Assembly: GCA_963801355.1 (NCBI GenBank) | Contig: CAWDEM010000008.1 | Location: 1,216,001-1,280,000 of the forward strand | DNA from: Ignavibacteriota bacterium | Lineage (GTDB): Bacteria > Bacteroidota > Ignavibacteria > UBA10030 > UBA6906 | Length of the DNA: 64,000 nt | Reading direction: 5' to 3' | Shown here: positions 1,855-29,245 of the stretch, in pieces | How positions within the stretch are numbered: position 1 is the stretch's first letter | How the letters are laid out: every line of letters starts with the position of its first letter | Notes under the pieces: model-generated | The model's database searches: none | The model's input: only the letters and a program-made list of their open reading frames with translations | Told to the model about the DNA's origin: nothing | Position numbers and translations under genes: made by a program

Positions 1855-1862
1855 TATATTTG
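1855..1862 (+). promoter_or_regulatory. Bacteroidota-type -7 promoter box (TAnnTTTG) for the 1889 operon
   Basis: TATATTTG lies 27 bp upstream of the ATG, with an AGGAGG RBS between them. Confidence 0.55.
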
Positions 1863-1888
1863 TCCCCGTTCAGAAAAGGAGGACTACA

Positions 1889-2881
1889 ATGGCATGGATC
1901 GAGAGTCACCAAGGGCTTCTTCACCACCCCAAGACGCGCAGACTGACGATACTCATGGACTGGTCTCAGTGGGAGACCGTCGGACGGCTCCAGAGCTTCT
2001 GGTGGTGGTGCATGGAATATGCCGAAGACGGAGACCTCCGCAGTTTCGAGATCTCAGAACTCGGCGAGGCAGCCGGTGTACCTGCGGAGCTGTCTCAACA
2101 GTTTGTGGATGCGATGAAGGCAACAGACTGGCTGGATACATCGCCGTACCTTCGCGTGCACAACTGGTGGCGGTACGCGGGACCCTTTCTCCGTTCCAGG
2201 CACAGGCAACAACCAGCAGTGTGGAAGCGAGTGAAACAGCTTTACAAAGATGTTGGCAACACAAACGACGCGACTTCCCGTGCACCGGGCAAAACTCGCC
2301 GCAAGCCAAAGACCAAGCAGAGTCAGAGGAAAACTAAACCCCGCCGCACCGTGACACCTAACCAAACCAAACCTGACCTAACCAGGTCTGACCATATCCA
2401 AAAAAACCATCATCAACATCAACAGCATGGTGTTGATGATGTTTCGCCGCAATTGCATTTCGCAAACCCGGGCCGGCACCAGCAACAGTCCTCAACCAAT
2501 CACCCGACTGCAGACGGACCTGTGGCTGACCATGCCGGCTCGGGAAGTGTCGCCCGCTCTGGTGAATCCACTCGCCGGGAAGATGTTATCCTGAAGACGC
2601 CCGAGCACGAACTGGAGCGGATCATTAGCGACCGCATCAGCCGCAACACGATGCTGTCGCGTCTGGATCTGCTAAACATGCAAACGCTCAAGAACAAGCA
2701 TGGGTCGAAGTTTGATGATGCCTGCAATATGCTCCACGGTGGAGTAACAAACCCACTGGCCTACCTCCGTGCAATATTGGAACCCGAATCCACCACGGAA
2801 TTACTGGCTGCGAAGCTACGGCAGTTCGTCCTCGCGCAAGACAACTCTCCGTATCCGGCAATGGAGGGCACCTATGGATGA
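1889..2881 (+). CDS. Phage-type replication initiator / replisome organizer-like protein
   Basis: N-terminus MAWIESHQGLLHHPKTRRL...VGRLQSFWWWCMEYAEDGDL...VHNW resembles phage initiator N-terminal domains. A low-complexity linker carries a pentamer-repeat tract, and the C-terminus has a DnaD-like NPLAYLRAIL. Strong RBS. Confidence 0.7.
   Translation: MAWIESHQGLLHHPKTRRLTILMDWSQWETVGRLQSFWWWCMEYAEDGDLRSFEISELGEAAGVPAELSQQFVDAMKATDWLDTSPYLRVHNWWRYAGPFLRSRHRQQPAVWKRVKQLYKDVGNTNDATSRAPGKTRRKPKTKQSQRKTKPRRTVTPNQTKPDLTRSDHIQKNHHQHQQHGVDDVSPQLHFANPGRHQQQSSTNHPTADGPVADHAGSGSVARSGESTRREDVILKTPEHELERIISDRISRNTMLSRLDLLNMQTLKNKHGSKFDDACNMLHGGVTNPLAYLRAILEPESTTELLAAKLRQFVLAQDNSPYPAMEGTYG
2356..2441 (+). 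repeat. Iteron/ori-like tract inside the initiator gene
   Basis: Pentamers ACCTA ACCAA ACCAA ACCTG ACCTA ACCAG GTCTG ACCAT, then an A-tract, then a perfect 11-bp inverted repeat CATCATCAACA (2408-2418) / TGTTGATGATG (2431-2441). Confidence 0.6.
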
Positions 2882-3293
2882 ATTCAGCGCATTCGCAGCG
2901 CACTTCCAGGGGCTCTGCCATGCCTTTCGTGAACCGGTAAACAGCGACACGCTGAACCAGTATTACGACGCATTCAAGGATCTGACCGACGCACAGGTAC
3001 ATCAACTTTTCACCTGGGCCATCCAGAACGTTGAGACCTCATTTCCGAAAATCGCAACGCTCAAACGCTACGCCACGGCGCAGGATTGGTACAGGCGGCG
3101 CCGAGTGGCCTCAGCGTGCGACCAAATCATCGTGGTCGTCTGCCCGGAGTGCCGCGGCAGTTTTGCCGTCAAGCGCACTGAACTCGAACGGCACGCCCGG
3201 GAGGGAAGATCGTTTATCTGCGTGAATGCCAAGTACTGGAAATGTCCGACTGTCTTTTCCGCACAAACCATTCTCGAGAACGAATCGCCATGA
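2874..3293 (+). CDS. Helicase loader/inhibitor-like protein with C-terminal zinc ribbon
   Basis: ATG 2874 with GGAGGG RBS overlaps the initiator stop. TLNQYYDAFKDL...FPKIATL resembles the small helical proteins that follow phage initiators. CPEC...CVNAKYWKC is a likely Zn site. Confidence 0.55.
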   Translation: MDEFSAFAAHFQGLCHAFREPVNSDTLNQYYDAFKDLTDAQVHQLFTWAIQNVETSFPKIATLKRYATAQDWYRRRRVASACDQIIVVVCPECRGSFAVKRTELERHAREGRSFICVNAKYWKCPTVFSAQTILENESP

Positions 3294-3997
3294 GATGCCC
3301 ACCTTCGCTTCCCGGGATGCCGAACCTTCACCGCTGGCGCGTGATGCAGCGCGACGCGATGATCATAGCGCGATTCGCAATTATGACCCAGGTGCACGCG
3401 ATCGCACTCCTGCTCCTTGTCGCACAAGGTGTGCGAGCTCAGCCGCCGCTCCAGGATTCCCTGGAACTGAAACTCCTTGAGTGCGACATCGAACAGGCAC
3501 GCCAGAAGGCAACGCAGAGCGATTTCTGGCACCGCCTGATTCCCCGCATCAGCCTGACCGCAAGTCTCGGCCTCAGGGACGTCCTGTTTCTCGATGGCGG
3601 CTCGGGGCTTCCGTATATGCTTCCCAGAGACGCGTACCGTCTTACGGTGACGCTTTCTCTCTCGGATATGCTTGACGGTTCGCAACATGGTGTGGACCTG
3701 ATTCAGATTCGGCGGCTCCGGGTCCAGTATGCCAGACTCATTGACCGGCAACAGCGCGACAGTCAAATCCTCAGGAAGAAACTCCTGACGCTGGACGAGG
3801 AAAGCCTGCACCTGCGCACAAGGGTCGGGTTGACCGAGGATGTATTGCGATTCAGGCAATTGCTCTTCGAACAGGGGAAGATTCACTACGACGAATTGAT
3901 CCGCGCGAAGCTCGACCTGCTCGAGGCCCGGGAGTCACTCAACCGACTGGGCGTGCAGCAGCTGGAGCTTCAGTTGCGGAACGGGAGAACGCAATGA
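3290..3997 (+). CDS. Short TolC/outer-membrane-factor-like protein (single OEP repeat)
   Basis: ATGA overlap; alternative start at 3383 gives signal peptide MTQVHAIALLLLVAQGVRA. LIPRISLTASLG, YRLTVTLSLSDMLDG and LFEQGKIHYDELIRAKLDLLEAR match OEP-repeat motifs. Confidence 0.65.
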   Translation: MRCPPSLPGMPNLHRWRVMQRDAMIIARFAIMTQVHAIALLLLVAQGVRAQPPLQDSLELKLLECDIEQARQKATQSDFWHRLIPRISLTASLGLRDVLFLDGGSGLPYMLPRDAYRLTVTLSLSDMLDGSQHGVDLIQIRRLRVQYARLIDRQQRDSQILRKKLLTLDEESLHLRTRVGLTEDVLRFRQLLFEQGKIHYDELIRAKLDLLEARESLNRLGVQQLELQLRNGRTQ

Positions 3998-4905
3998 TCA
4001 GAGGCGCCGTTGAAATATTCGGGGAAATTCCGGCTGTTTATCTCAACCCCTTTCTCGTAGCCGAGTCACAGGAAGAGGCAATGCGCGGATTCATCGTTGT
4101 TGCTTACCTCCCGGAGGAAGATCTGAAGCGCTACGACCTCCTCTTCCTCCGGGGTCCGGAAGTGTACGAATGCATCTCGCTTGATGAAGTCCGCCGTGCG
4201 CGAATCAACATGGATGCGGCCCACGGCCGGTTCAAGAGCTATATCAAACAGGGGCACACACTCATATATCTTTTCGAGGCCGGCGAATCCCTCACGCAGC
4301 ACTTCATATCCACCGTGTACACTGAACCGATCATCAAAGTAAAAGTCGAAACCCTTTCGAAGCAGCAGATTCAACGCCTCCTCCGTTCTGCCGGCTGCGC
4401 CCGCCCCCTGGCTGAGCGGATCGACTTCTCCAGGAAACTCCCGTCGGTTGAGATCAGGGAAATCGACCCGCTCTCCCCCGGGCTCGAATTCCATATCGGC
4501 TTCAAGCAAGGGGGATTCTTCCTGTACGACCTGGCTGACATGGCGGTTCGTCCGGCGGCAACAGCTCCCGTGTCACAAGCCGTGCAGACGGAACTGGCAT
4601 TCGAGCCGATCGTTGCTGCACGTACGTTTCAAGCGGTATGCACGGATGTGGCGCAGCTGACAAACGGGGTGACCTCCCGGGAAGGCGTTCAGGAGCCTCT
4701 TCCCGGGGCAGATCGGGAACCTGTTGATGAAGCGGATCAGGAGAGAGGCCGGTGTGCCGGCAGGAATCGCGATCGGTTAAGCCCCGATCGATTGCGCAGG
4801 AGGCCGGACGGGAAGAAGAGGTCTCAGAAGGCCACCCGGGCACATCAGCCGGATGTACAAGCGGCAGGTCTCCAACCGGATGCAGAGCGGGAGGTCTTCG
4901 ATTGA
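3994..4905 (+). CDS. Hypothetical protein
   Basis: 303 aa, ATGA-coupled to the previous gene. Globular N-terminal part and a charged, low-complexity C-terminus. Confidence 0.7.
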   Translation: MIRGAVEIFGEIPAVYLNPFLVAESQEEAMRGFIVVAYLPEEDLKRYDLLFLRGPEVYECISLDEVRRARINMDAAHGRFKSYIKQGHTLIYLFEAGESLTQHFISTVYTEPIIKVKVETLSKQQIQRLLRSAGCARPLAERIDFSRKLPSVEIREIDPLSPGLEFHIGFKQGGFFLYDLADMAVRPAATAPVSQAVQTELAFEPIVAARTFQAVCTDVAQLTNGVTSREGVQEPLPGADREPVDEADQERGRCAGRNRDRLSPDRLRRRPDGKKRSQKATRAHQPDVQAAGLQPDAEREVFD

Positions 4906-5327
4906 AGGCGTCATCGGCAGATCCCCAACAGGAAGCGCTGGCAGAGACTCAGGAGCATTTGTCTGGAGACTTGCATGTGAATGAAGAGGAGTTCGTGCGG
5001 GTCCTTGACCGCCTGTACCGCTCCTTCCGGCAACACGCATACGGATGCCTTGGCAGGAAATCCGAAAGCATCATTGCGAAGTCCGAACGCCGGCTGCAGC
5101 TTCTCAATCCGGAGTTCTCAACAGGCTCTCTTGATGAGTCGACTGCACCTCTCGTGCTGGATCTCATCGATGACGTCATCAAACACGCGCCGTGGCTGAG
5201 ACGATCGAAGCTTCGAGCTGCCGCGCTCACACTCGTGGCCGATCTTTTCACGAAACAGTACGAACTCCTTGAGCGACACAGAGCCGTAGACAAGGTGGAA
5301 CAGATTTACTACCGGATGAAACAATGA
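4902..5327 (+). CDS. Hypothetical alpha-helical protein
   Basis: TTG at 4902 with GGAGG RBS overlaps the upstream TGA. The longer ORF-track start at 4752 is unlikely. Confidence 0.65.
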   Translation: MKASSADPQQEALAETQEHLSGDLHVNEEEFVRVLDRLYRSFRQHAYGCLGRKSESIIAKSERRLQLLNPEFSTGSLDESTAPLVLDLIDDVIKHAPWLRRSKLRAAALTLVADLFTKQYELLERHRAVDKVEQIYYRMKQ

Positions 5328-5430
5328 AGGCATGGGGCGTTGGGCGCTGGGCACTGGGGGCCGGGATGTTGTGCAACAGCATCTACTTGTTTCCTCGTGC
5401 CCAGCGCCTGACGCCCGGTCCCTAAATGCA

Positions 5431-7086
5431 ATGACCGCTCCCACGCATATAGCATTTGCCGAACTTCTCTATCTGCTCATACTGACGACGACAGGCGTCG
5501 CACTCAGCGTCCCCAATGCCCTTCTGATTGCCGTGTCGTCCGTCCTCCCCGATATCGATACAGGCGCGAGCAGAATCGGCAGGTTCCTCCCGTTTGTCTC
5601 TTTCACACTGGAGCGCCGGTTCGGGCACCGGACATTTACGCACTCCTTCGCATGCGTGTTCCTTCTCTCGATATTCCTGAGCCCCCTCTGCCTGATCGGG
5701 AGGGACATCTACACCTGCATTGTGATGGGCTATCTTTCGCATCCGCTGCTGGACACGGGTACCGTGAACGGCACAAAACTCTTCTATCCGTTCTCGGGAG
5801 TGAGATGCGTCTTTCCGCTGGAGGCGTCCCGTCCGCAGCGCTATCGCATTCAGACGGGATCCCGCAATGAAAAAGTGCTGGGTATCATTTTCTTCGTCTG
5901 CTGCATTCCGACATTTTACGTTGCCTCCCAGGGATACGAACGATTTATCCGCGTGACGCAGCGAAGCATCGAGGCCGCCGTCCGCGACTACGAACAGTTC
6001 TCGCGGGACCACTTTGTGATGGCCACCTTCGATTCATACGACATGTTGACGAAGCAGACGTTCAACGGATCATACGAGATCGTCGGCGCTATTAACCCGC
6101 ATACGCTGGTCTTCAAAACATCCGACGGACGCCTGCACACCATCGGCAAAAGCTTCGAAGCTGATTATGTAGCCGAATCCATCGTGTGCCAGAAAGCCCG
6201 CCCGGCATTTGCATCCGTCCGCACAGTGGATATGAGCAATCAGCTCCTGGCGCAGTTGACCGCGCTCGTAGATACATCCGTCGAAAACTACTTCTTCGGG
6301 GATATCACCACGATTGACAAGGTCTCTCTGCCCGAGAATATTCACCTCTTCAGTCCGGTCACCGGATCGGGCGGCGTGATCAAACTGAATTTCGCCACAC
6401 CGAATGACATCAGAGAGTACAACCTGGAGCGTGTATTTGTTACCAAGGGGATACTCACCGTTAAGTCGATATCCCCTGCCCCCGCGCCCGGGGATTCTTC
6501 ATCCCCGGGAGGCTCTCCGCCGAAGTTCGACAGCTACTCGCAGCTCTCGTATCTCATCGAACCCAGGGATTCCGTGGTCCTCATCAAACACAAGGGGGAC
6601 ACGATCAGGCAGGGGGAAATCCTTGCAACAAAGACGACGATCTCATTTTACGAGGAGGAGCTGACAGTAAACGAAGAAAAGCGTGATGCGCAGATAAGCC
6701 AACAAACCGCCTCCCTGGAAGACTTCGACCGGAGGATAGCCGCCGCCGAGCTGGCCGTCGCACTTGACTCAGCGGACTACCTGCACGCGCGCACACTTCT
6801 GAAGGGCGGATTTCTATCCCCGGGTCAGATCTTCTCCTATGAGCTGAAGTTGCGTAAGGAGAGAGCTGCATTGCGCAAACTTCAATCGGCAAAACGCGCG
6901 CTGGCCAGGCAAATGGCACTTGATATCGCCCGTTTTCACCTGCGCGAGTCTCAGCTGCGTGAGAAAGCAAGAGGCGCCCGGCTGCAGTCTGAAATACGCT
7001 CTCCTGTGGGCGGCGTCCTGCTCGAGGTGCGCCAAATGCCGCAGGACAACAAGACCCGGCTCGTGTTTATCGTAAAACGGCATTGA
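5431..7086 (+). CDS. YdjM-like membrane metal-dependent hydrolase fused to an HlyD/MFP-like hairpin-lipoyl domain
   Basis: MTAPTH..LPDID..GHRTFTHS..GYLSHPLLD are YdjM-family motifs. The C-terminus has KGDTIRQGEILA, a coiled-coil with YLHARTLLKGGFLS, and EIRSPVGGVL (lipoyl half-motifs). Confidence 0.8.
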   Translation: MTAPTHIAFAELLYLLILTTTGVALSVPNALLIAVSSVLPDIDTGASRIGRFLPFVSFTLERRFGHRTFTHSFACVFLLSIFLSPLCLIGRDIYTCIVMGYLSHPLLDTGTVNGTKLFYPFSGVRCVFPLEASRPQRYRIQTGSRNEKVLGIIFFVCCIPTFYVASQGYERFIRVTQRSIEAAVRDYEQFSRDHFVMATFDSYDMLTKQTFNGSYEIVGAINPHTLVFKTSDGRLHTIGKSFEADYVAESIVCQKARPAFASVRTVDMSNQLLAQLTALVDTSVENYFFGDITTIDKVSLPENIHLFSPVTGSGGVIKLNFATPNDIREYNLERVFVTKGILTVKSISPAPAPGDSSSPGGSPPKFDSYSQLSYLIEPRDSVVLIKHKGDTIRQGEILATKTTISFYEEELTVNEEKRDAQISQQTASLEDFDRRIAAAELAVALDSADYLHARTLLKGGFLSPGQIFSYELKLRKERAALRKLQSAKRALARQMALDIARFHLRESQLREKARGARLQSEIRSPVGGVLLEVRQMPQDNKTRLVFIVKRH

Positions 7087-8105
7087 CGGCATCTCCCATG
7101 GACAGCACCGATCTCCGGCAGGACCAGGTGTTCTTCGGAAGAAGCGATGAGCTGTACGAGCTTACGCGAAATCTTCAGCGGGGCAGGCACACGCTGCTCA
7201 TCGGCGAGAAAGGGATCGGAAAATCGCGGCTTATGCTTGAGGCAATCAGGATACTTTCAGGGAAGGTGCGCTCCATCGAATTCTCCGCCGGGGTCACGGC
7301 GCGTCTCCGGGGTCAGCTCGCCTCCCGGTTGAGTCCGGATTACTACAACATTCTGTACGTCCGGCATCCCACGCCGATGGGCGATTGCGTCAAGGAGATT
7401 GCGGAACAGCTGCACAGCCTGGAAGTGCTCCGCCTCGACGGGAACAAAGACAAACAAGATTGGCCGACAATGCAGCGACATATTGTAAAGCTCGGGAGCG
7501 TGAAAGCGCAGGCATTCATCCTGGACGGGATTTCCCGCTCCGATCGCCATCATCTGGTGTTCTTTGACAACCTTGACAGGATTTCCCCTCCGCATCAGGC
7601 ATTTCTGGAGGCACTGCTCAGTATCGCGGTGGTATGTGCGGCGGTGGTGCAGATGAAAGATCAGTTCATATTCAAACGGATCTGGGCGTCATTTGCCAGG
7701 ATTGAAGTGAAGCCGTTCGGTCAAGCGGAATCGCTTCAAATCATCAATCACTACCTTGAGCATTACCCTATCCGTGTCATCGATCGGGAACTCTATCGTC
7801 GTGAGGTACTGAAGGCCGCGAACGGCAACCCGTTCCTCATCAAGAATCTTCTCTGGCATACCTCATGCGAGCGTCATGTGGGCCTGGATGACATCCGGGG
7901 TCTCCGGCGTGTGGAAGACGGACCGTTTTTCAATATGGGCCCGATCTACATCTTCGTCGCCAGCATGTTCACGATATTCAAGATCTTCTCGCTGGGAACG
8001 AACAACTCCGAGTTCTACATCTACTTCTCCGCCCTCGGGTTCCTGGTCTATCTCACGTTCCGCATATTCAGGACATTTTTCTTGTTCCGGCCACACCACA
8101 GGTAA
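7083..8105 (+). CDS. AAA/P-loop ATPase with two C-terminal transmembrane helices
   Basis: FFGRSDEL, Walker A GEKGIGKS, Walker B LVFFDNLD, and a GNPFLI motif. The C-terminus has hydrophobic segments IYIFVASMFTIFKIF and FYIYFSALGFLVYLTF. Confidence 0.8.
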   Translation: MTASPMDSTDLRQDQVFFGRSDELYELTRNLQRGRHTLLIGEKGIGKSRLMLEAIRILSGKVRSIEFSAGVTARLRGQLASRLSPDYYNILYVRHPTPMGDCVKEIAEQLHSLEVLRLDGNKDKQDWPTMQRHIVKLGSVKAQAFILDGISRSDRHHLVFFDNLDRISPPHQAFLEALLSIAVVCAAVVQMKDQFIFKRIWASFARIEVKPFGQAESLQIINHYLEHYPIRVIDRELYRREVLKAANGNPFLIKNLLWHTSCERHVGLDDIRGLRRVEDGPFFNMGPIYIFVASMFTIFKIFSLGTNNSEFYIYFSALGFLVYLTFRIFRTFFLFRPHHR

Positions 8106-8108
8106 ATC

Positions 8109-8174
8109 GGGGTCAGACCCCTGTGCGCCCCTGTGCGCATAGGGCCTGACCCCTGAATGACTCCCCTGAATGAC
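8109..8174. repeat. REP-like palindromes (GGGGTCAGACCCC / GGGCCTGACCCC) with short tandem duplications
   Basis: Palindromes at 8109-8121 and 8142-8153; CCCCTGTGCG x2 and CCCCTGAATGACT x2. Confidence 0.7.
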
Positions 8175-8179
8175 TTGGA

Positions 8180-8422
8180 TTAGCTGGGATCCCGCGCGTA
8201 CTGTGAGGCGTAGTGGTCAAGGAGGCTCCGGATCATCTTCTGGTATTGCGTCCGGTTCTGCTTTGCCATGCGCTTGAAGAACCTCACGCTGGATTTGCTC
8301 AAGGCAATCGTAATCTTGACCTTGTCATCCCGCAGCACCAGCTCATGGGGGGGAGGCAGGAAGTCCTTCACCACCTGAACGGGACCCATGTTCTCATCCG
8401 TGTACTTTATTCGCTTCCTCAT
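8180..8422 (-). CDS. BrnA-like / CopG-family antitoxin
   Basis: MRKRIKYTDE...DFLPPPHELV...VKITIALSKSSVRFFK...YQKMIRSLLDHY (ribbon-helix-helix antitoxin family). Confidence 0.8.
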   Translation of the reverse strand: MRKRIKYTDENMGPVQVVKDFLPPPHELVLRDDKVKITIALSKSSVRFFKRMAKQNRTQYQKMIRSLLDHYASQYARDPS

Positions 8423-8491
8423 ATAGCCTTTTTCCCGATTTTCACGGTCTTTGTCTTCATCCCACTCGAACCGGACTGTTTGCTTAGACAT
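8392..8491 (-). pseudogene. BrnT toxin remnant with internal deletion
   Basis: The N-terminus MSKQTVRFEWDEDKDRENREK abuts the toxin C-terminal tail GKRLYEEANKVHG* in another frame. The core of the gene is missing. Confidence 0.7.
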
Positions 8492-8619
8492 TGTACGAAA
8501 TTATATGGATAAATAGCAATTATTTTGTATGGCTTGATACTATTACATTCAAGCCGAGGGATTTTCGAAAGCTGATCTGGAGAAATTCCTGGAAGGCTGC
8601 CCACTGGCAAGGCCCGGGC

Positions 8620-8676
8620 CAATTGTCAATAGTCAATGGACTATCGACAATCGTCAATCGGTTGGGGCCTGACCCC
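8620..8676. repeat. Six 7-bp CAAT(T/A/C/G)G(T/A/G)-type units plus a GGGGCCTGACCCC palindrome
   Basis: caattgt caatagt caatgga ctatcga caatcgt caatcgg (8620-8661), then the palindrome at 8664-8676. Confidence 0.7.
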
Positions 8677-8795
8677 TGCGTCACTTGAAGAATCATTGTT
8701 TTCAAGCTATATTGGGCTACAGGAATCCCTGGACGTTCCCCCCCTTTGGCAACCACCGGATCGTCTTCGTTCTTACGATTGCATCGGACTACCAT

Positions 8796-10997
8796 ATGAA
8801 TGCTCTTTCACGCAGAAAATTTCTGAAGATCTCCGGGGCGGCAGTGGGCGCCGCTGCGGCCGGAACGGCAGCAATGCGGGCTGCAGGGCCGATCGCCTCG
8901 GCCACTTTGCCAACCGCGAAAGGCCTGCAAAAAGTCCCGACATTCTGTGACATCTGCTTCTGGAAATGCGGGACCATCGCATACGTCAGGGACGGAGAAC
9001 TCTGGAAGGTGGAAGGCAACCCGCTCGATCCCCTGAGCAATGGCCGGTTGTGTCCGAGAGGCACTGGAGGTGTCGGAGCCCACTACGACCCCGACCGCCT
9101 CAGAGCACCGCTGGTGCGCAAGAACAACCGCGGCCAGGAGGAATGGTTGGAGGTGACGTGGGACGAGGCATTTGCGTTCATTGCGGAAAAGATGCAGGCC
9201 ATCAAGACACAGTACGGACCGGAGTCCGTCGCCATGTTCAGCCATGGCATCGGCGGGAATTTCCTGAAGCATATGCTCAAGGCGTACGGGAGCCCGAACA
9301 TCGCCGCCCCGTCATTTGCACAGTGCCGTGGACCCCGTGATGTGGGGTTCCGGCTCACCTTCGGCGAGGATGTCAGCTCCCCCGAACGCACGGATATCCG
9401 CAACGCCCGCTGCATCGTTCTCCTGGGAAGCCACCTCGGGGAGAACATGCACAACACCCAGGTGCAGGAATTTGCTGACGCCGTCGGCGCTGGCGCATCG
9501 GTAATTGTCGCAGACCCCAGGTTTTCCATCGCCGCCGGAAAAGCAAAGTACTACCTCCCGGTGAAACCGGGGACGGACATCGCCCTCCTCCTCGCATGGA
9601 TGCACGTGATCGTCACCGGGAAGCTGTACGATCATGAATATGTTGCGAAGCACGGTTTTGGATTCGAACAGTTCGCCGCCTCCCTGACACCGTTTACTCC
9701 GGAGTGGGCATATCCCGAGACCGGCATCGAACCGGCGGTGATCGAAGCCACCGCACGCGAGATGGCAGCGTACAAACCCGCAACGCTCGTCCACCCCGGA
9801 CGCCACGCAACCTGGTACGGTGACGACACACAGCGCAGCCGCGCCATCGCATTGCTGAATGCGCTCCTGGGCAGCTGGGGCCGCAAGGGCGGCTTCTATA
9901 CGCCCGTCAGCATGGATCTGCCCGGATACCCCTACCCGGAATACCCCGCAAGCAAGCTGGGGAAGGTCGACAATCCCGACCACAGATATCCCTTCGCTCA
10001 CGAAACCATCACCACCGGCATCCGGGAAGCCACGATTACCGGCAACCCGTACCCGATCAAGGGATGGTGGGTGTATGCCACGAACCTCATCCACGCACTT
10101 CCCAATGAATCGGAAACAATCAAAGCAATTCAGAACCTGGATCTCATGGTAGTTGTGGATGTGATCCCGAGCGAAATCGCCGGATGGGCCGATGTAGTGC
10201 TTCCGGAGTCGGTGTACCTTGAGCGGCACGACGATCTGAACGTAGAGTGGTTCCGCGAACCGTTCATCGCCCTCAGACAGCCCGTTGTCGCGGCCCCTCA
10301 TGAACAGAAGCCGAACTGGTGGATCGCAAAGAAGATGGCTGAACACCTCGGCCTGAGCGCATACTTCCCGTGGAACGATATTGAAGAATACCTCCGATAC
10401 CGCCTTTCCGCCGGCGGCATTGACTACGAGCGCCTCAAAAAAGACGGCATCATCAGGGGACCCGCACAGCCCATCTATTACGAAGAGGGTCTTCCACCGG
10501 TGTTCCCCACGCCCAGCGGAAAGATTGAATTCTACTCACCGCAATTGCAGAAGGCCGGTTTCGATCCGGTGCCCGTATATCATAGACCTCCACCCGGTCC
10601 GCCGGGGTACTACCGTCTCCTGTACGGACGGGCACCAGTCCATTCGTTCAGCAGAACCCACTCCAATCGTATTCTCTCTGACATGATGGAGGAAAACGAA
10701 ATCTGGGTCAACACGCAGACCGCACGCCATCATGACCTGGTGCACGGCCAGTATGTGCGGCTCAAGAATCAAGATGGCGTTGTCAGCAACCGCATCAAAG
10801 TAAAGGTCACGGAACGTATACGTCCGGAGTGCGTCTACATGGTCCACGGCTTCGGCCACAACAGCCGGATGCTCAGGCATGCCTTCGGGAAGGGTGCGAG
10901 CGATGCTCAGCTCATCACGCGTTATACAACCGACCCGTTGATGGGCGGCACGGGAATGAGCAACAACTTCGTCACCTTTGAATCCGTGGAGGCCTGA
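8796..10997 (+). CDS. psrA: Polysulfide/thiosulfate reductase catalytic subunit (molybdopterin oxidoreductase)
   Basis: Tat signal SRRKFLK; CDICFWKC...C [4Fe-4S] motif; Cys ligand in SFAQCRGPR; MGD-binding motifs; C-terminal molybdopterin dinucleotide domain. Confidence 0.88.
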   Translation: MNALSRRKFLKISGAAVGAAAAGTAAMRAAGPIASATLPTAKGLQKVPTFCDICFWKCGTIAYVRDGELWKVEGNPLDPLSNGRLCPRGTGGVGAHYDPDRLRAPLVRKNNRGQEEWLEVTWDEAFAFIAEKMQAIKTQYGPESVAMFSHGIGGNFLKHMLKAYGSPNIAAPSFAQCRGPRDVGFRLTFGEDVSSPERTDIRNARCIVLLGSHLGENMHNTQVQEFADAVGAGASVIVADPRFSIAAGKAKYYLPVKPGTDIALLLAWMHVIVTGKLYDHEYVAKHGFGFEQFAASLTPFTPEWAYPETGIEPAVIEATAREMAAYKPATLVHPGRHATWYGDDTQRSRAIALLNALLGSWGRKGGFYTPVSMDLPGYPYPEYPASKLGKVDNPDHRYPFAHETITTGIREATITGNPYPIKGWWVYATNLIHALPNESETIKAIQNLDLMVVVDVIPSEIAGWADVVLPESVYLERHDDLNVEWFREPFIALRQPVVAAPHEQKPNWWIAKKMAEHLGLSAYFPWNDIEEYLRYRLSAGGIDYERLKKDGIIRGPAQPIYYEEGLPPVFPTPSGKIEFYSPQLQKAGFDPVPVYHRPPPGPPGYYRLLYGRAPVHSFSRTHSNRILSDMMEENEIWVNTQTARHHDLVHGQYVRLKNQDGVVSNRIKVKVTERIRPECVYMVHGFGHNSRMLRHAFGKGASDAQLITRYTTDPLMGGTGMSNNFVTFESVEA

Positions 10998-27179: not shown

Positions 27180-27229
27180 ATGCGTCATCAAGGATGTGAG
27201 CCTTTTTCTTCTTCGTCGGGAGGTGTGTC

Positions 27230-29245
27230 ATGAACGCACCACTGCGCGGGTGGAGAGTCACGGCGTGCGTGCTGATTTGTATCGCCGGCATCGGACAAAG
27301 CTCTCATGGAACGGATGATCCGGTGCTGTATTTCTCCGATATCGCGAGCGGACCTCGCACCGGCAACACCGATGTCTCACTCGGTCAGATCTCCGGCCAG
27401 GACGGCGCGATTGTGACGATTTGGGGTAGAAACTTTGGTGCTCCCGGAACGGCCACGGTCACCTGCAACGGCGCAACAGCGGCATACTATTACGCACAAG
27501 AGAATGCCACACGGCCGGCCAATCTCACGACGTACCATCGCATGGAGATGATTTCTTTCCAGATCCGGAATACAGCACAGGACGGGTTTGGCTCCATCAC
27601 CGTTGTCGTAAACGGCAAACAATCCAATACCCTCCCCTTCACCGTCCGTCCGGGAAATATCTACTATGTGAAAAGCACAGGGAGCGACGTAACGGGAAAC
27701 GGAACGTGGGCGAATCCGTGGCAGACCATCGCCGCCGCAAAGGACTCCATCGTGCCGGGAGACATCGTCTACGTTTGCAATGGCGTGCATCAGGTGACGG
27801 AGACTGAATACGGCGCATGCGTGAACCTCGGCACACATGGTGAACCCGGAAAGCCAAAGGCGCTCGTGGTGTATCCCGGTGCAACAGCTATGGTTGGCAA
27901 CGACTCTCTCTATTATGCCTTCCAGTCATTCTATGCGGATACCGGAGGGAGTTCGCGCCACTGGGTTGTCGCCAAGTTCACAGTCCGGACTGCAGGCGTG
28001 AGCGTTCCCGCGCAGACCGGATATCGCGTGATCGGCAACCTGATGACGGCTCCGAACGGCGACGGAGCCGATGCCGCCATCACCGTGGAAGGTGACAGCG
28101 TAGTCGTCGCCGGCAATGAGCTGGACAATGTGGGGAGACCGGACTGCGACAAACTCTACCACGGGATTTACGGCAAAGGATTCCGCACCGATGTGCCTCC
28201 CCGTGCGCCGACAGAATCCGAACGGGAGATCGCATGGAACTACATTCACGATTGCCAATCCGACCGCGCCATCGACCTCTACAGCGAACAGCCATTCTCT
28301 GCGTTTATACAACGGCACAGAATCCACGATAATGTCATCATCAATCAGCATGGCGACGGGATTCTGATCGGCTATTACGTCGTCGGGGAAAACTGGATCT
28401 ACAATAACCTCATCGTGAGGGCGGGACTTGGCCCGGAGTGGGCCGGCGGTGAGGCATCTTCTCACGCGGGAATCCGGATCGATTGCGGACACGAAACGGG
28501 GCCTGCCACTACTATCTATTGCTACAACAATACGCTCGTTGCGTGCGGATGGCCGGGTGCGGTCTGGCATGAGGAGAGCGGGCACTTGTACGTAAGTCCT
28601 CTTGCACTTTCGCGCGCAACAACAGTGGACTTCCGGAACAACATCATCCTCTCCGGAGGTGAACCGTACGCCGCAGAAGCCTCCGGCACGATGCCATCCG
28701 GAAACCACAATAACTGTTGGTACGGTGCGGGGAGCGCCCCACCGTGGGACCTCAATGCCATCAATGCCCCTCCTGTGTTTGCAGACACCAACACCAGCGA
28801 CTTTCGCCTGGCCCCCGGAAGCCCGTGCATCAACACTGGACAGGATGTCTCAACGGTGGTGGGGCGGGATCTCCTGGGAACGCCGCGTCCGCAGGGCCCT
28901 TCGTTCGACCTCGGGGTCTACGAATCTGAATCCGCCGTGGCAGTCGGCATGTCCGGAAACGACACGGAAGCGTATCTCCTCACACCGTGCTATCCGAATC
29001 CGTTTAATCCGTCTACAACGATTTCTTTTGCGCTGCCTCAACGGACCCGCGTTCAGCTCTCGATCGTCGATGCAATCGGGCGGCTGGTCCGGACACTCCT
29101 CGACGACAATCGATCAGCGGGAACACACACCGTCGTATGGGATGGCAGCAACTCACAGGGCGTCCCAGCCGCAGCCGGCGTCTACTTCTGCCGCATGCGT
29201 ACCGGCAGCTGGCAGGCCACAGAACAATTGCTCTTGATCCACTGA
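27230..29245 (+). CDS. Secreted beta-helix (pectate-lyase-like) protein with Ig/IPT domain and T9SS/FlgD-type C-terminal domain
   Basis: Signal peptide; IVTIWGRNFG; NPWQTI..PGDIVYV; parallel beta-helix repeats; DFRLAPGSPCINTG..FDLGVYE; YPNPFNPSTTI..WDG..GVYF. Confidence 0.85.
   Translation: MNAPLRGWRVTACVLICIAGIGQSSHGTDDPVLYFSDIASGPRTGNTDVSLGQISGQDGAIVTIWGRNFGAPGTATVTCNGATAAYYYAQENATRPANLTTYHRMEMISFQIRNTAQDGFGSITVVVNGKQSNTLPFTVRPGNIYYVKSTGSDVTGNGTWANPWQTIAAAKDSIVPGDIVYVCNGVHQVTETEYGACVNLGTHGEPGKPKALVVYPGATAMVGNDSLYYAFQSFYADTGGSSRHWVVAKFTVRTAGVSVPAQTGYRVIGNLMTAPNGDGADAAITVEGDSVVVAGNELDNVGRPDCDKLYHGIYGKGFRTDVPPRAPTESEREIAWNYIHDCQSDRAIDLYSEQPFSAFIQRHRIHDNVIINQHGDGILIGYYVVGENWIYNNLIVRAGLGPEWAGGEASSHAGIRIDCGHETGPATTIYCYNNTLVACGWPGAVWHEESGHLYVSPLALSRATTVDFRNNIILSGGEPYAAEASGTMPSGNHNNCWYGAGSAPPWDLNAINAPPVFADTNTSDFRLAPGSPCINTGQDVSTVVGRDLLGTPRPQGPSFDLGVYESESAVAVGMSGNDTEAYLLTPCYPNPFNPSTTISFALPQRTRVQLSIVDAIGRLVRTLLDDNRSAGTHTVVWDGSNSQGVPAAAGVYFCRMRTGSWQATEQLLLIH

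Follow-up and report, generated by a model that had tools for sequence, protein, structure and literature searches.

A single-repeat TolC-like protein, a YdjM-family hydrolase with a predicted adaptor fold and a membrane ATPase recur together on small replicons of diderm bacteria

What is a run of overlapping genes that joins phage-type replication functions to parts of an envelope exporter doing in a bacterial genome? The question is raised by positions 1889–8105 of a 64-kb window (the whole stretch of DNA analysed here, from an Ignavibacteriota bacterium), where a first-pass annotation had placed seven plus-strand open reading frames (ORFs), all of which are present and which we call g1 to g7. 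That annotation saw a replication module fused to an unusual export set, and offered as one explanation a satellite or domesticated element with its own conduit across the envelope. Our best explanation, to which we give a probability of about one half, is that the genes encode an element-borne trans-envelope conduit driven by a membrane AAA+ ATPase. On this explanation the window holds a compact member, lacking recombinases, of a family of small mobile replicons; those in Ignavibacteria-type genomes would be integrative elements, those in Thermus and other diderm bacteria plasmids. The genes have identifiable domains in a conserved order, and they are linked to recombinases, tRNA sites, replication genes and plasmids; from these we infer that g3, g6 and g7 assemble into one conduit.

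Domains of the envelope genes

The N-terminal 190 residues of g6 match YdjM (PF04307) at 96 bits (cut-off 29, E 2.4e-27), and profile and conserved residues together make this domain a member of YdjM and a predicted hydrolase. Among 44 sequences from several phyla, 16 of the 17 invariant columns fall within it (A322 is the exception), including the metal-ligand-type residues D41, D43, E61, H66, H71, H104 and D108, with H6 conserved in at least 90%. An AlphaFold2 (AF2) model built from a 44-row alignment (mean pLDDT 85.9) shows a helical membrane domain (residues 1–190), a beta domain (194–350) and strands 369–402 and 521–550 that enclose a 110-residue hairpin (407–519) of two helices of about 55 residues each; a lipoyl domain split by an alpha-helical hairpin, the feature of adaptors, is present in this prediction. 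Foldseek places its best PDB matches in EmrA (4tko, E 5.8e-6), HlyD, EmrAB-TolC, MacA, AcrA and MexA, with E values from 5.8e-6 to 1.1e-2 and probabilities of 0.99–1.00. In sequence comparisons the NCBIfam EmrA profile gives E 0.098 (11.6 bits, cut-off 390.8), no Pfam adaptor family matches at E up to 1, and RxxxLxxxxxxS, which we take to be the adaptor hairpin-tip motif, is missing. The fusion of YdjM to a membrane fusion protein (MFP) that had been proposed for g6 is borne out by profile for its N-terminal half and by model and fold search for its C-terminal half.

Parts of a published study (PMC8557891) that compared profiles relate YdjM to the phospholipase C alpha-toxin, to HET-C and to S1-P1 nuclease, record it as a toxin module and describe the family as usually stand-alone or coupled to a beta-sandwich. 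Because of the profile relationship to both phospholipase C and S1-P1 nuclease, the g6 enzyme could act on lipid or on nucleic acid. The hydrolase–adaptor fusion family is large: against 1.84 billion representative proteins the g6 profile finds 584 matches with E no higher than 1e-30. With the limit at 1e-10 it finds 4159, a set that includes YdjM-only relatives, and many of the top 150 matches cover the full 550 positions.

A canonical TolC-type factor has two tandem OEP repeats in about 420–480 residues. The g3 protein matches Pfam OEP (PF02321) at 23.6 bits (cut-off 22) over profile positions 9–171 of 187, which amounts to one repeat, and 15 of 30 members of its family also match (best E 3.4e-11). 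Their alignment has a signal-like hydrophobic N-terminus followed by about 180 conserved residues. The two-repeat form of the canonical outer membrane factor is absent from g3 and its relatives, which are 190–290 residues long with one OEP-matched stretch each, and the earlier description of a single-repeat TolC-like gene holds.

The third member of the trio, g7, is a P-loop ATPase of the AAA_16 type (PF13191; 38.1 bits, cut-off 32.6, E 2.8e-9), with weaker Pfam matches to nSTAND1 and, confined to the P-loop, to ABC_tran (E 0.14). In 41 aligned sequences G44 and G46 of Walker A are invariant, K47 is present in at least 90%, and a hydrophobic C-terminal two-helix hairpin followed by basic residues is kept, in agreement with the transmembrane AAA ATPase originally proposed. 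Complex prediction for g6(1–200) with g7 gave a score of 0.46 against 0.00 for the best control, with at least 75% of contacts shared between runs and a partner pLDDT of at least 68. In calibration, 58 complexes out of 80 with solved structures reach the mark used, as do 2 mismatched pairs out of 110; the range up to 0.60 holds 7 of the 80 solved complexes and both passing mismatches, so that the score weakly suggests an association.

The remaining two ORFs of this group, g4 and g5, had been listed as two hypotheticals and are a single gene in relatives. Together they align to single proteins of 358–491 residues (458 in the same-genus genome G002), which we call g45. In the window the two frames overlap at 4752–4905; six indels, a 2-nt one among them, separate the Pro/Arg/Glu-rich linker from its G002 counterpart and leave two overlapping frames. 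The AF2 model of the G002 protein has two confident domains (residues 1–185 at pLDDT of about 90) with about 150 disordered residues between them, and the C-terminal domain stands alone in the relatives L011/L068. Because the split lies in the linker and the C-terminal domain occurs alone in some relatives, it may be tolerated, or else it may reflect an assembly error. We describe g45 as a cytoplasmic two-domain protein. Its profile matched no PDB sequence, Foldseek gave no significant fold match to the model (best E 0.043, probability 0.13; beta-clamp rows at probability 0.07 or below), a VIA wide search reached Z 7.6 at best with generic helical bundles only, and the best ESM Atlas score of 0.81 is under the useful range, leaving PatA_N/DUF4388 as a lead only.

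Relatives on integrative elements and plasmids

Do the replication and envelope genes belong together elsewhere? In Ignavibacteria-type genomes g3, g45, g6 and g7 form the constant backbone of one-strand elements of about 8–12 kb, many of which carry tyrosine or serine recombinases beside tRNA genes and most of which carry replication genes. Among 41 related genomes from 36 genera, 11 genomes in 9 genera have a g6 gene, whose identity does not track kinship, being 53% in another family and 48% in the same genus. In eight loci retrieved from these genomes g3, g45, g6 and g7 are collinear, with g1 and g2 found only in G002. A wider census, made by a pattern scan of one genome per species followed by ORF calling and iterated hidden Markov model (HMM) searches, gave 77 loci, 41 of them Ignavibacteria-type. 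Among the latter, g7 is present in all 35 loci whose sequence continues for 2 kb or more past g6; where at least 4.5 kb lies upstream, g3 is present in 28 of 28 loci and g45 in 27.

The commonest array reads, on one strand, tyrosine recombinase (about 290 residues), lipoprotein A, lipoprotein B, g3, g45, Y, Z, g6, X, g7 and 3' recombinase. Y carries Pfam Lin1244_N and matches phrog_2562, 'replication initiation protein' (E 3e-12); Z matches the thumb of DNA polymerase beta and, weakly and below threshold, its palm (E 0.0077); X is a KaiC/DnaB_C-like ATPase (phrog_26214, E 2.8e-53; phrog_19, DnaB-like helicase, E 2e-19). Profile searches of the PDB with lipoproteins A and B gave nothing better than E 0.2; for A there was an Ig-like FlgD match (E 0.27). 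The 3' recombinase is a tyrosine integrase of 270–387 residues in six loci, and in seven others its position is taken by an ORF of 580–650 residues, the three scanned being large serine recombinases. A tRNA gene, of varying species, lies 0.1–2.3 kb past g7 in 12 of 23 loci scanned. A compact variant (L056, L065) runs Int, g1, g3, g45, g6, g7, Int.

Replication genes do travel with the envelope set, as the first-pass annotation would have it. The 28 loci with sufficient upstream sequence include 22 with an initiator-like gene. In an independent search of 301 genomes of the class, made with the Y alignment and not with g6, all eight matches (in seven genomes) have, on their own contig and strand, a g6 match 0.6–1.4 kb away. 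The usual initiator is Y (19 loci), however, a family unlike the g1 of the window (3 loci). Homology between g1 and Y was considered and rejected: none is detectable (hhalign probability 0.2), and the two occupy different array positions. The distribution of g6 in those 301 genomes is patchy, at 21 genomes and 12 of 136 genera. As a separate observation, one relative (L016/L061; 6888–11699 in L016) has a gene pair for an extracytoplasmic function (ECF) sigma factor and a zf-HC2 anti-sigma factor directly 5' of, and co-oriented with, g3, g6 and g7.

Beyond Ignavibacteria, the trio of ATPase, half-TolC and hydrolase-adaptor is found again on Thermus plasmids and in four or more additional phyla. 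On the Thermus plasmid pL4C (NC_010878.1) the genes run ATP-binding protein, hypothetical, TolC family (236 residues), two hypotheticals, metal-dependent hydrolase (544 residues); the trio adjoins ParA, and similar Thermus plasmids measure 19–25 kb. The window set is the same system as this uncharacterised operon. Single-repeat OEP genes lie beside g6 in Thermus and Trueperaceae (seven Deinococcota loci, two from one contig), and again in Rubritalea, Rokubacteria and Omnitrophica (three of ten neighbouring ORFs scanned), where the Omnitrophica neighbour (L073) is a 210-residue OEP protein matching over profile positions 1–187, the full length, at E 1.2e-21. Of the 19 loci from other phyla that extend 3.5 kb or more upstream, 17 have g7 together with g6, and outside Ignavibacteria an OEP-like neighbour is found in 11 of 16 loci whose g6 has at least 430 residues versus 1 of 20 with a shorter or fragmentary g6, by a pooled OEP HMM that was itself built from positives, on contigs many of which are short, with two loci (L097 and L098) on one contig and kin not independent. 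One 15.6-kb contig of Thermus thalpophilus (L087) that carries the ATPase, TolC-like and hydrolase set has a coverage of about 999 in its name, which suggests a high-copy replicon.

A tblastn search of plasmids returned 374 records, mostly YdjM-only in Bacillus and Clostridium, with hydrolase and ATPase pairs on plasmids of Thermus, Allochromatium, Gloeocapsa and Stanieria. On Allochromatium vinosum pALVIN01 (L108, 7973–11174) an ATPase and a short hydrolase are followed by a gene for a CHAP-domain protein (cell-wall hydrolase), and the pair sits among phage-like genes (Gp157, SSB). IMG/VR holds no g6 relative, and a phage collection gave only two records, each with a YdjM-domain-only match. 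Phage-like genomes are not among the relatives, which are integrative elements and plasmids.

The copy in the window

The genes of the window copy are listed in Table 1. The proposal of co-oriented, overlapping genes is confirmed at four junctions read directly on the sequence: an 8-nt overlap of g1 (stop 2879–2881) with g2 (ATG at 2874), ATGA overlaps of g2 (stop 3291–3293) with g3 (in-frame ATG at 3290) and of g3 with g4 (ATG at 3994), and a TTGA overlap of g6 with g7 (TTG start at 7083). Seven ORFs do exist, but by comparison with relatives, where g4 and g5 are one gene, the locus has six genes, of which g2, g3 and g6 probably begin later than their longest frames. Ahead of g1, the candidate promoter box was judged against a Bacteroidetes-type consensus that we take to be TAnnTTTG; a scan for sigma-70 promoters and terminators returned counts near the shuffled expectation, with none at the operon ends and none at 1855–1882.

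Table 1. Features of the locus in window coordinates; g2, g3 and g6 are given from their probable starts, taken from alignment with relatives
Feature	Position	Longest frame	Strand	Basis
Candidate promoter -7 box, TATATTTG	1855 (feature 1855..1882)		+	motif position, ahead of g1
Possible Shine-Dalgarno, AGGAGG	1877 (feature 1855..1882)		+	motif position, ahead of g1
g1, phage-type replication-initiator-like protein	1889..2881	1889-2881	+	phrog_9474 match
g2, 139-aa orphan, four conserved Cys (CPxC...C...C)	2874..3293	2769-3293	+	alignment of 3 copies
g3, secreted single-repeat OEP ('half-TolC')	3290..3997	3242-3997	+	Pfam OEP
g4, N-terminal alpha/beta domain and linker of g45	3994..4905	3994-4905	+	one ORF in G002
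g5, C-terminal helical domain of g45	4752..5327 (homologous part from ~4981)	4752-5327	+	alignment to G002
g6, YdjM metallohydrolase membrane domain, beta domain, predicted MFP-like lipoyl and alpha-hairpin	5431..7086	5332-7086	+	YdjM, AF2, Foldseek
g7, AAA_16-type P-loop ATPase, C-terminal two-helix membrane anchor	7083..8105	7083-8105	+	AAA_16 match

The g1 protein matches phrog_9474, 'replication initiation protein', over residues 1–180 (E 6.4e-24) and no Pfam family, which upholds its description as initiator-like. Homologue alignment divides it into a conserved N-terminal domain of about 125 residues, a low-complexity linker and a conserved C-terminal domain, and 3 of the 51 homologues from a large protein search carry PF09524, a family we take to be the C-terminus of phage replication proteins. 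Most likely g1 starts replication of the element. The internal iteron-like tract that had been reported in it did not survive: the sole tandem array is (ACCAA)x5.8 at 2356–2384 (TRF score 30–44), which encodes a TPNQ..KPDL peptide motif retained at the protein level in paralogues and which we take to be low-complexity coding sequence instead of iterons. The tie of g1 to the module is less faithful than that of Y, with stray copies in its own genome and G004 without a g6 match. Two such paralogues lie away from the module, at C4:821098–822048 (L029 9060–10148, minus strand), between a GT2 glycosyltransferase and an FAD oxidoreductase, and at C6:16071–16448 (L028 10072–10497), where only the N-terminal domain is present; neither has a g2 match or adjoining envelope genes.

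For g2 the proposed helicase-loader likeness finds no support, and the gene is an orphan: its zinc-ribbon matches are sub-threshold and its PHROG match (E 0.0012) is to a family of unknown function. A search of 5.8 billion proteins found two close homologues, all four cysteines are retained in the three sequences, and the known copies, in the window, G002 and contig C5 of its own genome, all adjoin g1. That 11-kb contig (L027 6957–11132) holds a second, diverged array copy at 42–64% amino acid identity, in the order small tyrosine recombinase, g1', g2', g3', g4', and ends inside g4'; the own-genome assembly has no second g6 or g7.

The layout of the window copy is the compact g1-type minus both recombinases. 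As had been noted, no integrase is nearby: three recombinase queries and a recombinase HMM matched none of the ORFs in the 64-kb window, which also has no tRNA gene. No homologue of B, X, Y or Z was found among the window ORFs, and the weak A-like match is in an unrelated ORF (27200–29242). The att-site search that had been suggested found no border repeat of at least 10 nt and no 10-mer common to both borders, and in an empty-site comparison the BNR flank is syntenic only in G002. Among sequencing runs no RNA run was listed and nine DNA runs gave word shares of 0.23 or below; the low-depth short contigs from four runs contained neither joints nor a piece across the region. Pfam scans of the seven ORFs and two flanking genes found no capsid, relaxase or ABC/RND family; no relaxase, VirB4-type ATPase or coupling protein is among the Pfam matches of the proteins scanned from this locus and its relatives; and no satellite-type PHROG or Pfam family matched the seven ORFs or eight proteins of one full element. 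The genes are nonetheless under purifying selection, g1 and g2 included, because dN/dS against G002 is 0.23 for g1, 0.27 for g2, 0.18 for g3, 0.09 for the g4 N-terminal domain and 0.09 for g6 (flanking BNR gene, 0.29). The window copy cannot move by itself and is still selected for function. Its dS against G002 is 0.50–0.90 for the element genes (1889–7086) and 0.25 for the adjacent BNR gene (1–1570); element and flank may have different histories.

The locus is flanked on its 5' side by a divergent BNR/sortilin-repeat gene and on its 3' side by a small BrnA-like ORF, a dispersed repeat and a molybdopterin oxidoreductase gene. The BrnA-like ORF (8180–8491, minus strand, 103 residues) has a sub-threshold match to the BrnA antitoxin (E 5.9e-4, 20.6 bits, cut-off 26.1) and is flanked on both sides, near 8141 and 8665, by GGGCCTGACCCCTG-like repeats. 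The dispersed repeat at 8610–8684 is a 65–75-nt element with CAATCGT/CAATCGA heptamer repeats and a REP/MITE-type look; blastn matches it 15 times in its own genome and in 21 rows for G002, and G001, G003 and G004 have copies too. The oxidoreductase (8685–10997), which has a TAT signal, gave no match at E up to 1e-50 in four genomes of the same genus, and the whole neighbourhood around it may be variable.

A possible conduit, its rivals and known systems

How might the parts work together? TolC is a trimer with two repeats per subunit, adaptors are hexameric and so are most AAA+ proteins. Six half-TolC copies of g3 would make one channel like the TolC trimer, six g6 hairpins could dock on it as a hexameric adaptor, and g7, if hexameric, would sit beneath g6 on the cytoplasmic face as an AAA+ ring, held in the inner membrane by its C-terminal hairpin, with g6 spanning from the inner membrane to the periplasm. 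The basic residues after the g7 hairpin and before the last g6 membrane helix are consistent with this topology. The element may use such a conduit to pass a macromolecule through the envelope, whether protein or element DNA, and the g6 hydrolase would process lipid or nucleic acid at the inner membrane. We favour a conduit used by the element itself because the envelope set is constant while integration and replication genes are swapped. One specific form of the idea is a long shot: the trio would let small plasmids and integrative elements of diderm bacteria transfer their own DNA without type IV secretion or a relaxase, the domain related to P1 nuclease and phospholipase C (PLC) processing DNA or opening the membrane at the channel entrance.

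Several observations weigh against an element-borne conduit. The g3 profile has no match among PDB sequences at E up to 0.1, TM-scores for the adaptor matches of g6 are low (0.09–0.34), and g7 is a generic AAA_16/STAND-like protein without demonstrated pore or translocase features, its PDB profile matches mostly confined to the Walker A region and its predicted association with g6 weak. Among the proteins scanned, none could be identified as cargo, relaxase, coupling protein or coat protein. The census loci were found through g6, whose constancy is therefore by construction, and kin genomes are not independent; no initiator was detected in 6 of the 28 loci with sufficient upstream sequence (L045, L048, L052, L058, L061 and L068). 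Many gammaproteobacterial loci have g7 and a short g6 only, without an OEP gene, like two-gene defence cassettes, and the window copy itself is without recombinase, tRNA or border repeats. Finally, no g45, replication or recombinase genes were detected in the ECF-linked locus, in line with a cellular function in the envelope. Because of this locus and the two-gene forms, we keep defence and envelope maintenance as alternative readings.

A defence or exclusion module, which we consider unlikely, would have a STAND-like g7 sense infection or incoming DNA and trigger PLC-like membrane damage by YdjM in abortive infection, or would have the set block entry. The weak nSTAND1 and AAA_16 matches of g7, the pairs of g7 and short g6 on plasmids and near integrases in Gammaproteobacteria and the patchy distribution (11 of 41 relatives, 21 of 301 genomes) all speak for it, as does the YdjM relationship to alpha-toxin phospholipase C and its occurrence as a toxin module in parts of PMC8557891. 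However, PADLOC 2.0 (2023 library) gave no match below E 0.005 for the seven ORFs (best E 0.0053, mad8, then 0.016), an adaptor hairpin with an OEP partner is hard to reconcile with a suicide effector, and the constancy of the envelope set against a background of varying replication and integration genes is the opposite of what cargo typically shows.

Doubtful to a slightly greater degree is an envelope-maintenance machine, a bridge that would carry lipid or envelope components between the membranes under envelope stress and merely be carried by mobile elements. It could account for the co-oriented ECF sigma/anti-sigma pair, for a hydrolase domain that part of PMC8557891 relates to phospholipase C and for a window copy that is chromosomally fixed and under purifying selection, but it sits poorly with the class-wide scan, where just 21 of 301 genomes have the set, and with the location of most copies between recombinases and replication genes or on plasmids. 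Very unlikely is a virus-like lifestyle, as a phage satellite or a filamentous-phage-like element with g7 as membrane assembly ATPase: a small one-strand genome with integrase and initiator, the phage replication PHROGs matched by g1 and Y and a g7 layout (N-terminal P-loop, C-terminal membrane anchor) that is reminiscent of inovirus pI/Zot are outweighed by the lack of any Zot or capsid family among Pfam or PHROG matches (small coat-like genes lie outside that scan; Zot is not among the 15 Pfam families matched by g7 at E up to 1), by the IMG/VR and phage-collection results above and by a TolC-type lumen too narrow for a filament. What stands of the first-pass annotation is its core idea, replication genes that travel with an envelope set, and the OEP, HlyD/EmrA-like, YdjM, AAA_16 and initiator PHROG matches were all found by profile and fold searches; the satellite part has no capsid-related or IMG/VR match behind it.

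An element-encoded conduit would matter for how small replicons live. The set may be how they spread or persist, because it is a constant part of them in at least five phyla, and we know of no mechanism of spread or persistence for these replicons. The fusion family is testable because it is present in cultivable Thermus. No description of the trio or the gene set was found in the literature, with subscription papers and supplements outside the scope of that search, and the parts of PMC4599208 that mention pL4C give no function for its operon. Compared with the window set, pL4C has the same trio in a different order, with the ATPase first and small hypothetical genes where g45 would be; identity to g6 is about 28%, and the operon lies on a free plasmid that also has ParA.

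Other known systems overlap with the set in part. YdjM/DUF457 hydrolases share the PF04307 N-terminal domain with its invariant His, Asp and Glu residues, to which g6 adds a predicted adaptor-type lipoyl domain and hairpin. With tRNA-targeting integrative elements and integrated plasmids the relatives share recombinases, tRNA sites and replication genes, whereas the window copy does not, and no relaxase or type IV secretion genes are among the families scanned. Tripartite exporters (HlyBD-TolC type I secretion, MacAB-TolC and EmrAB-TolC) have in common with the set an OEP protein, a lipoyl/alpha-hairpin adaptor (predicted for g6) and an inner-membrane NTPase. Here, in contrast, the OEP protein has one repeat instead of two, a multi-helix YdjM hydrolase anchors the adaptor, the only membrane part of the NTPase, an AAA_16 protein, is a transmembrane hairpin, no ABC, RND or MFS transporter is among the seven ORFs, and the set is the backbone of mobile elements. 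If the trio is one complex, a membrane-anchored AAA+ ATPase would be a fourth energiser of TolC-type channels beside ABC, RND and MFS transporters, and a TolC channel could be built from single-repeat subunits.

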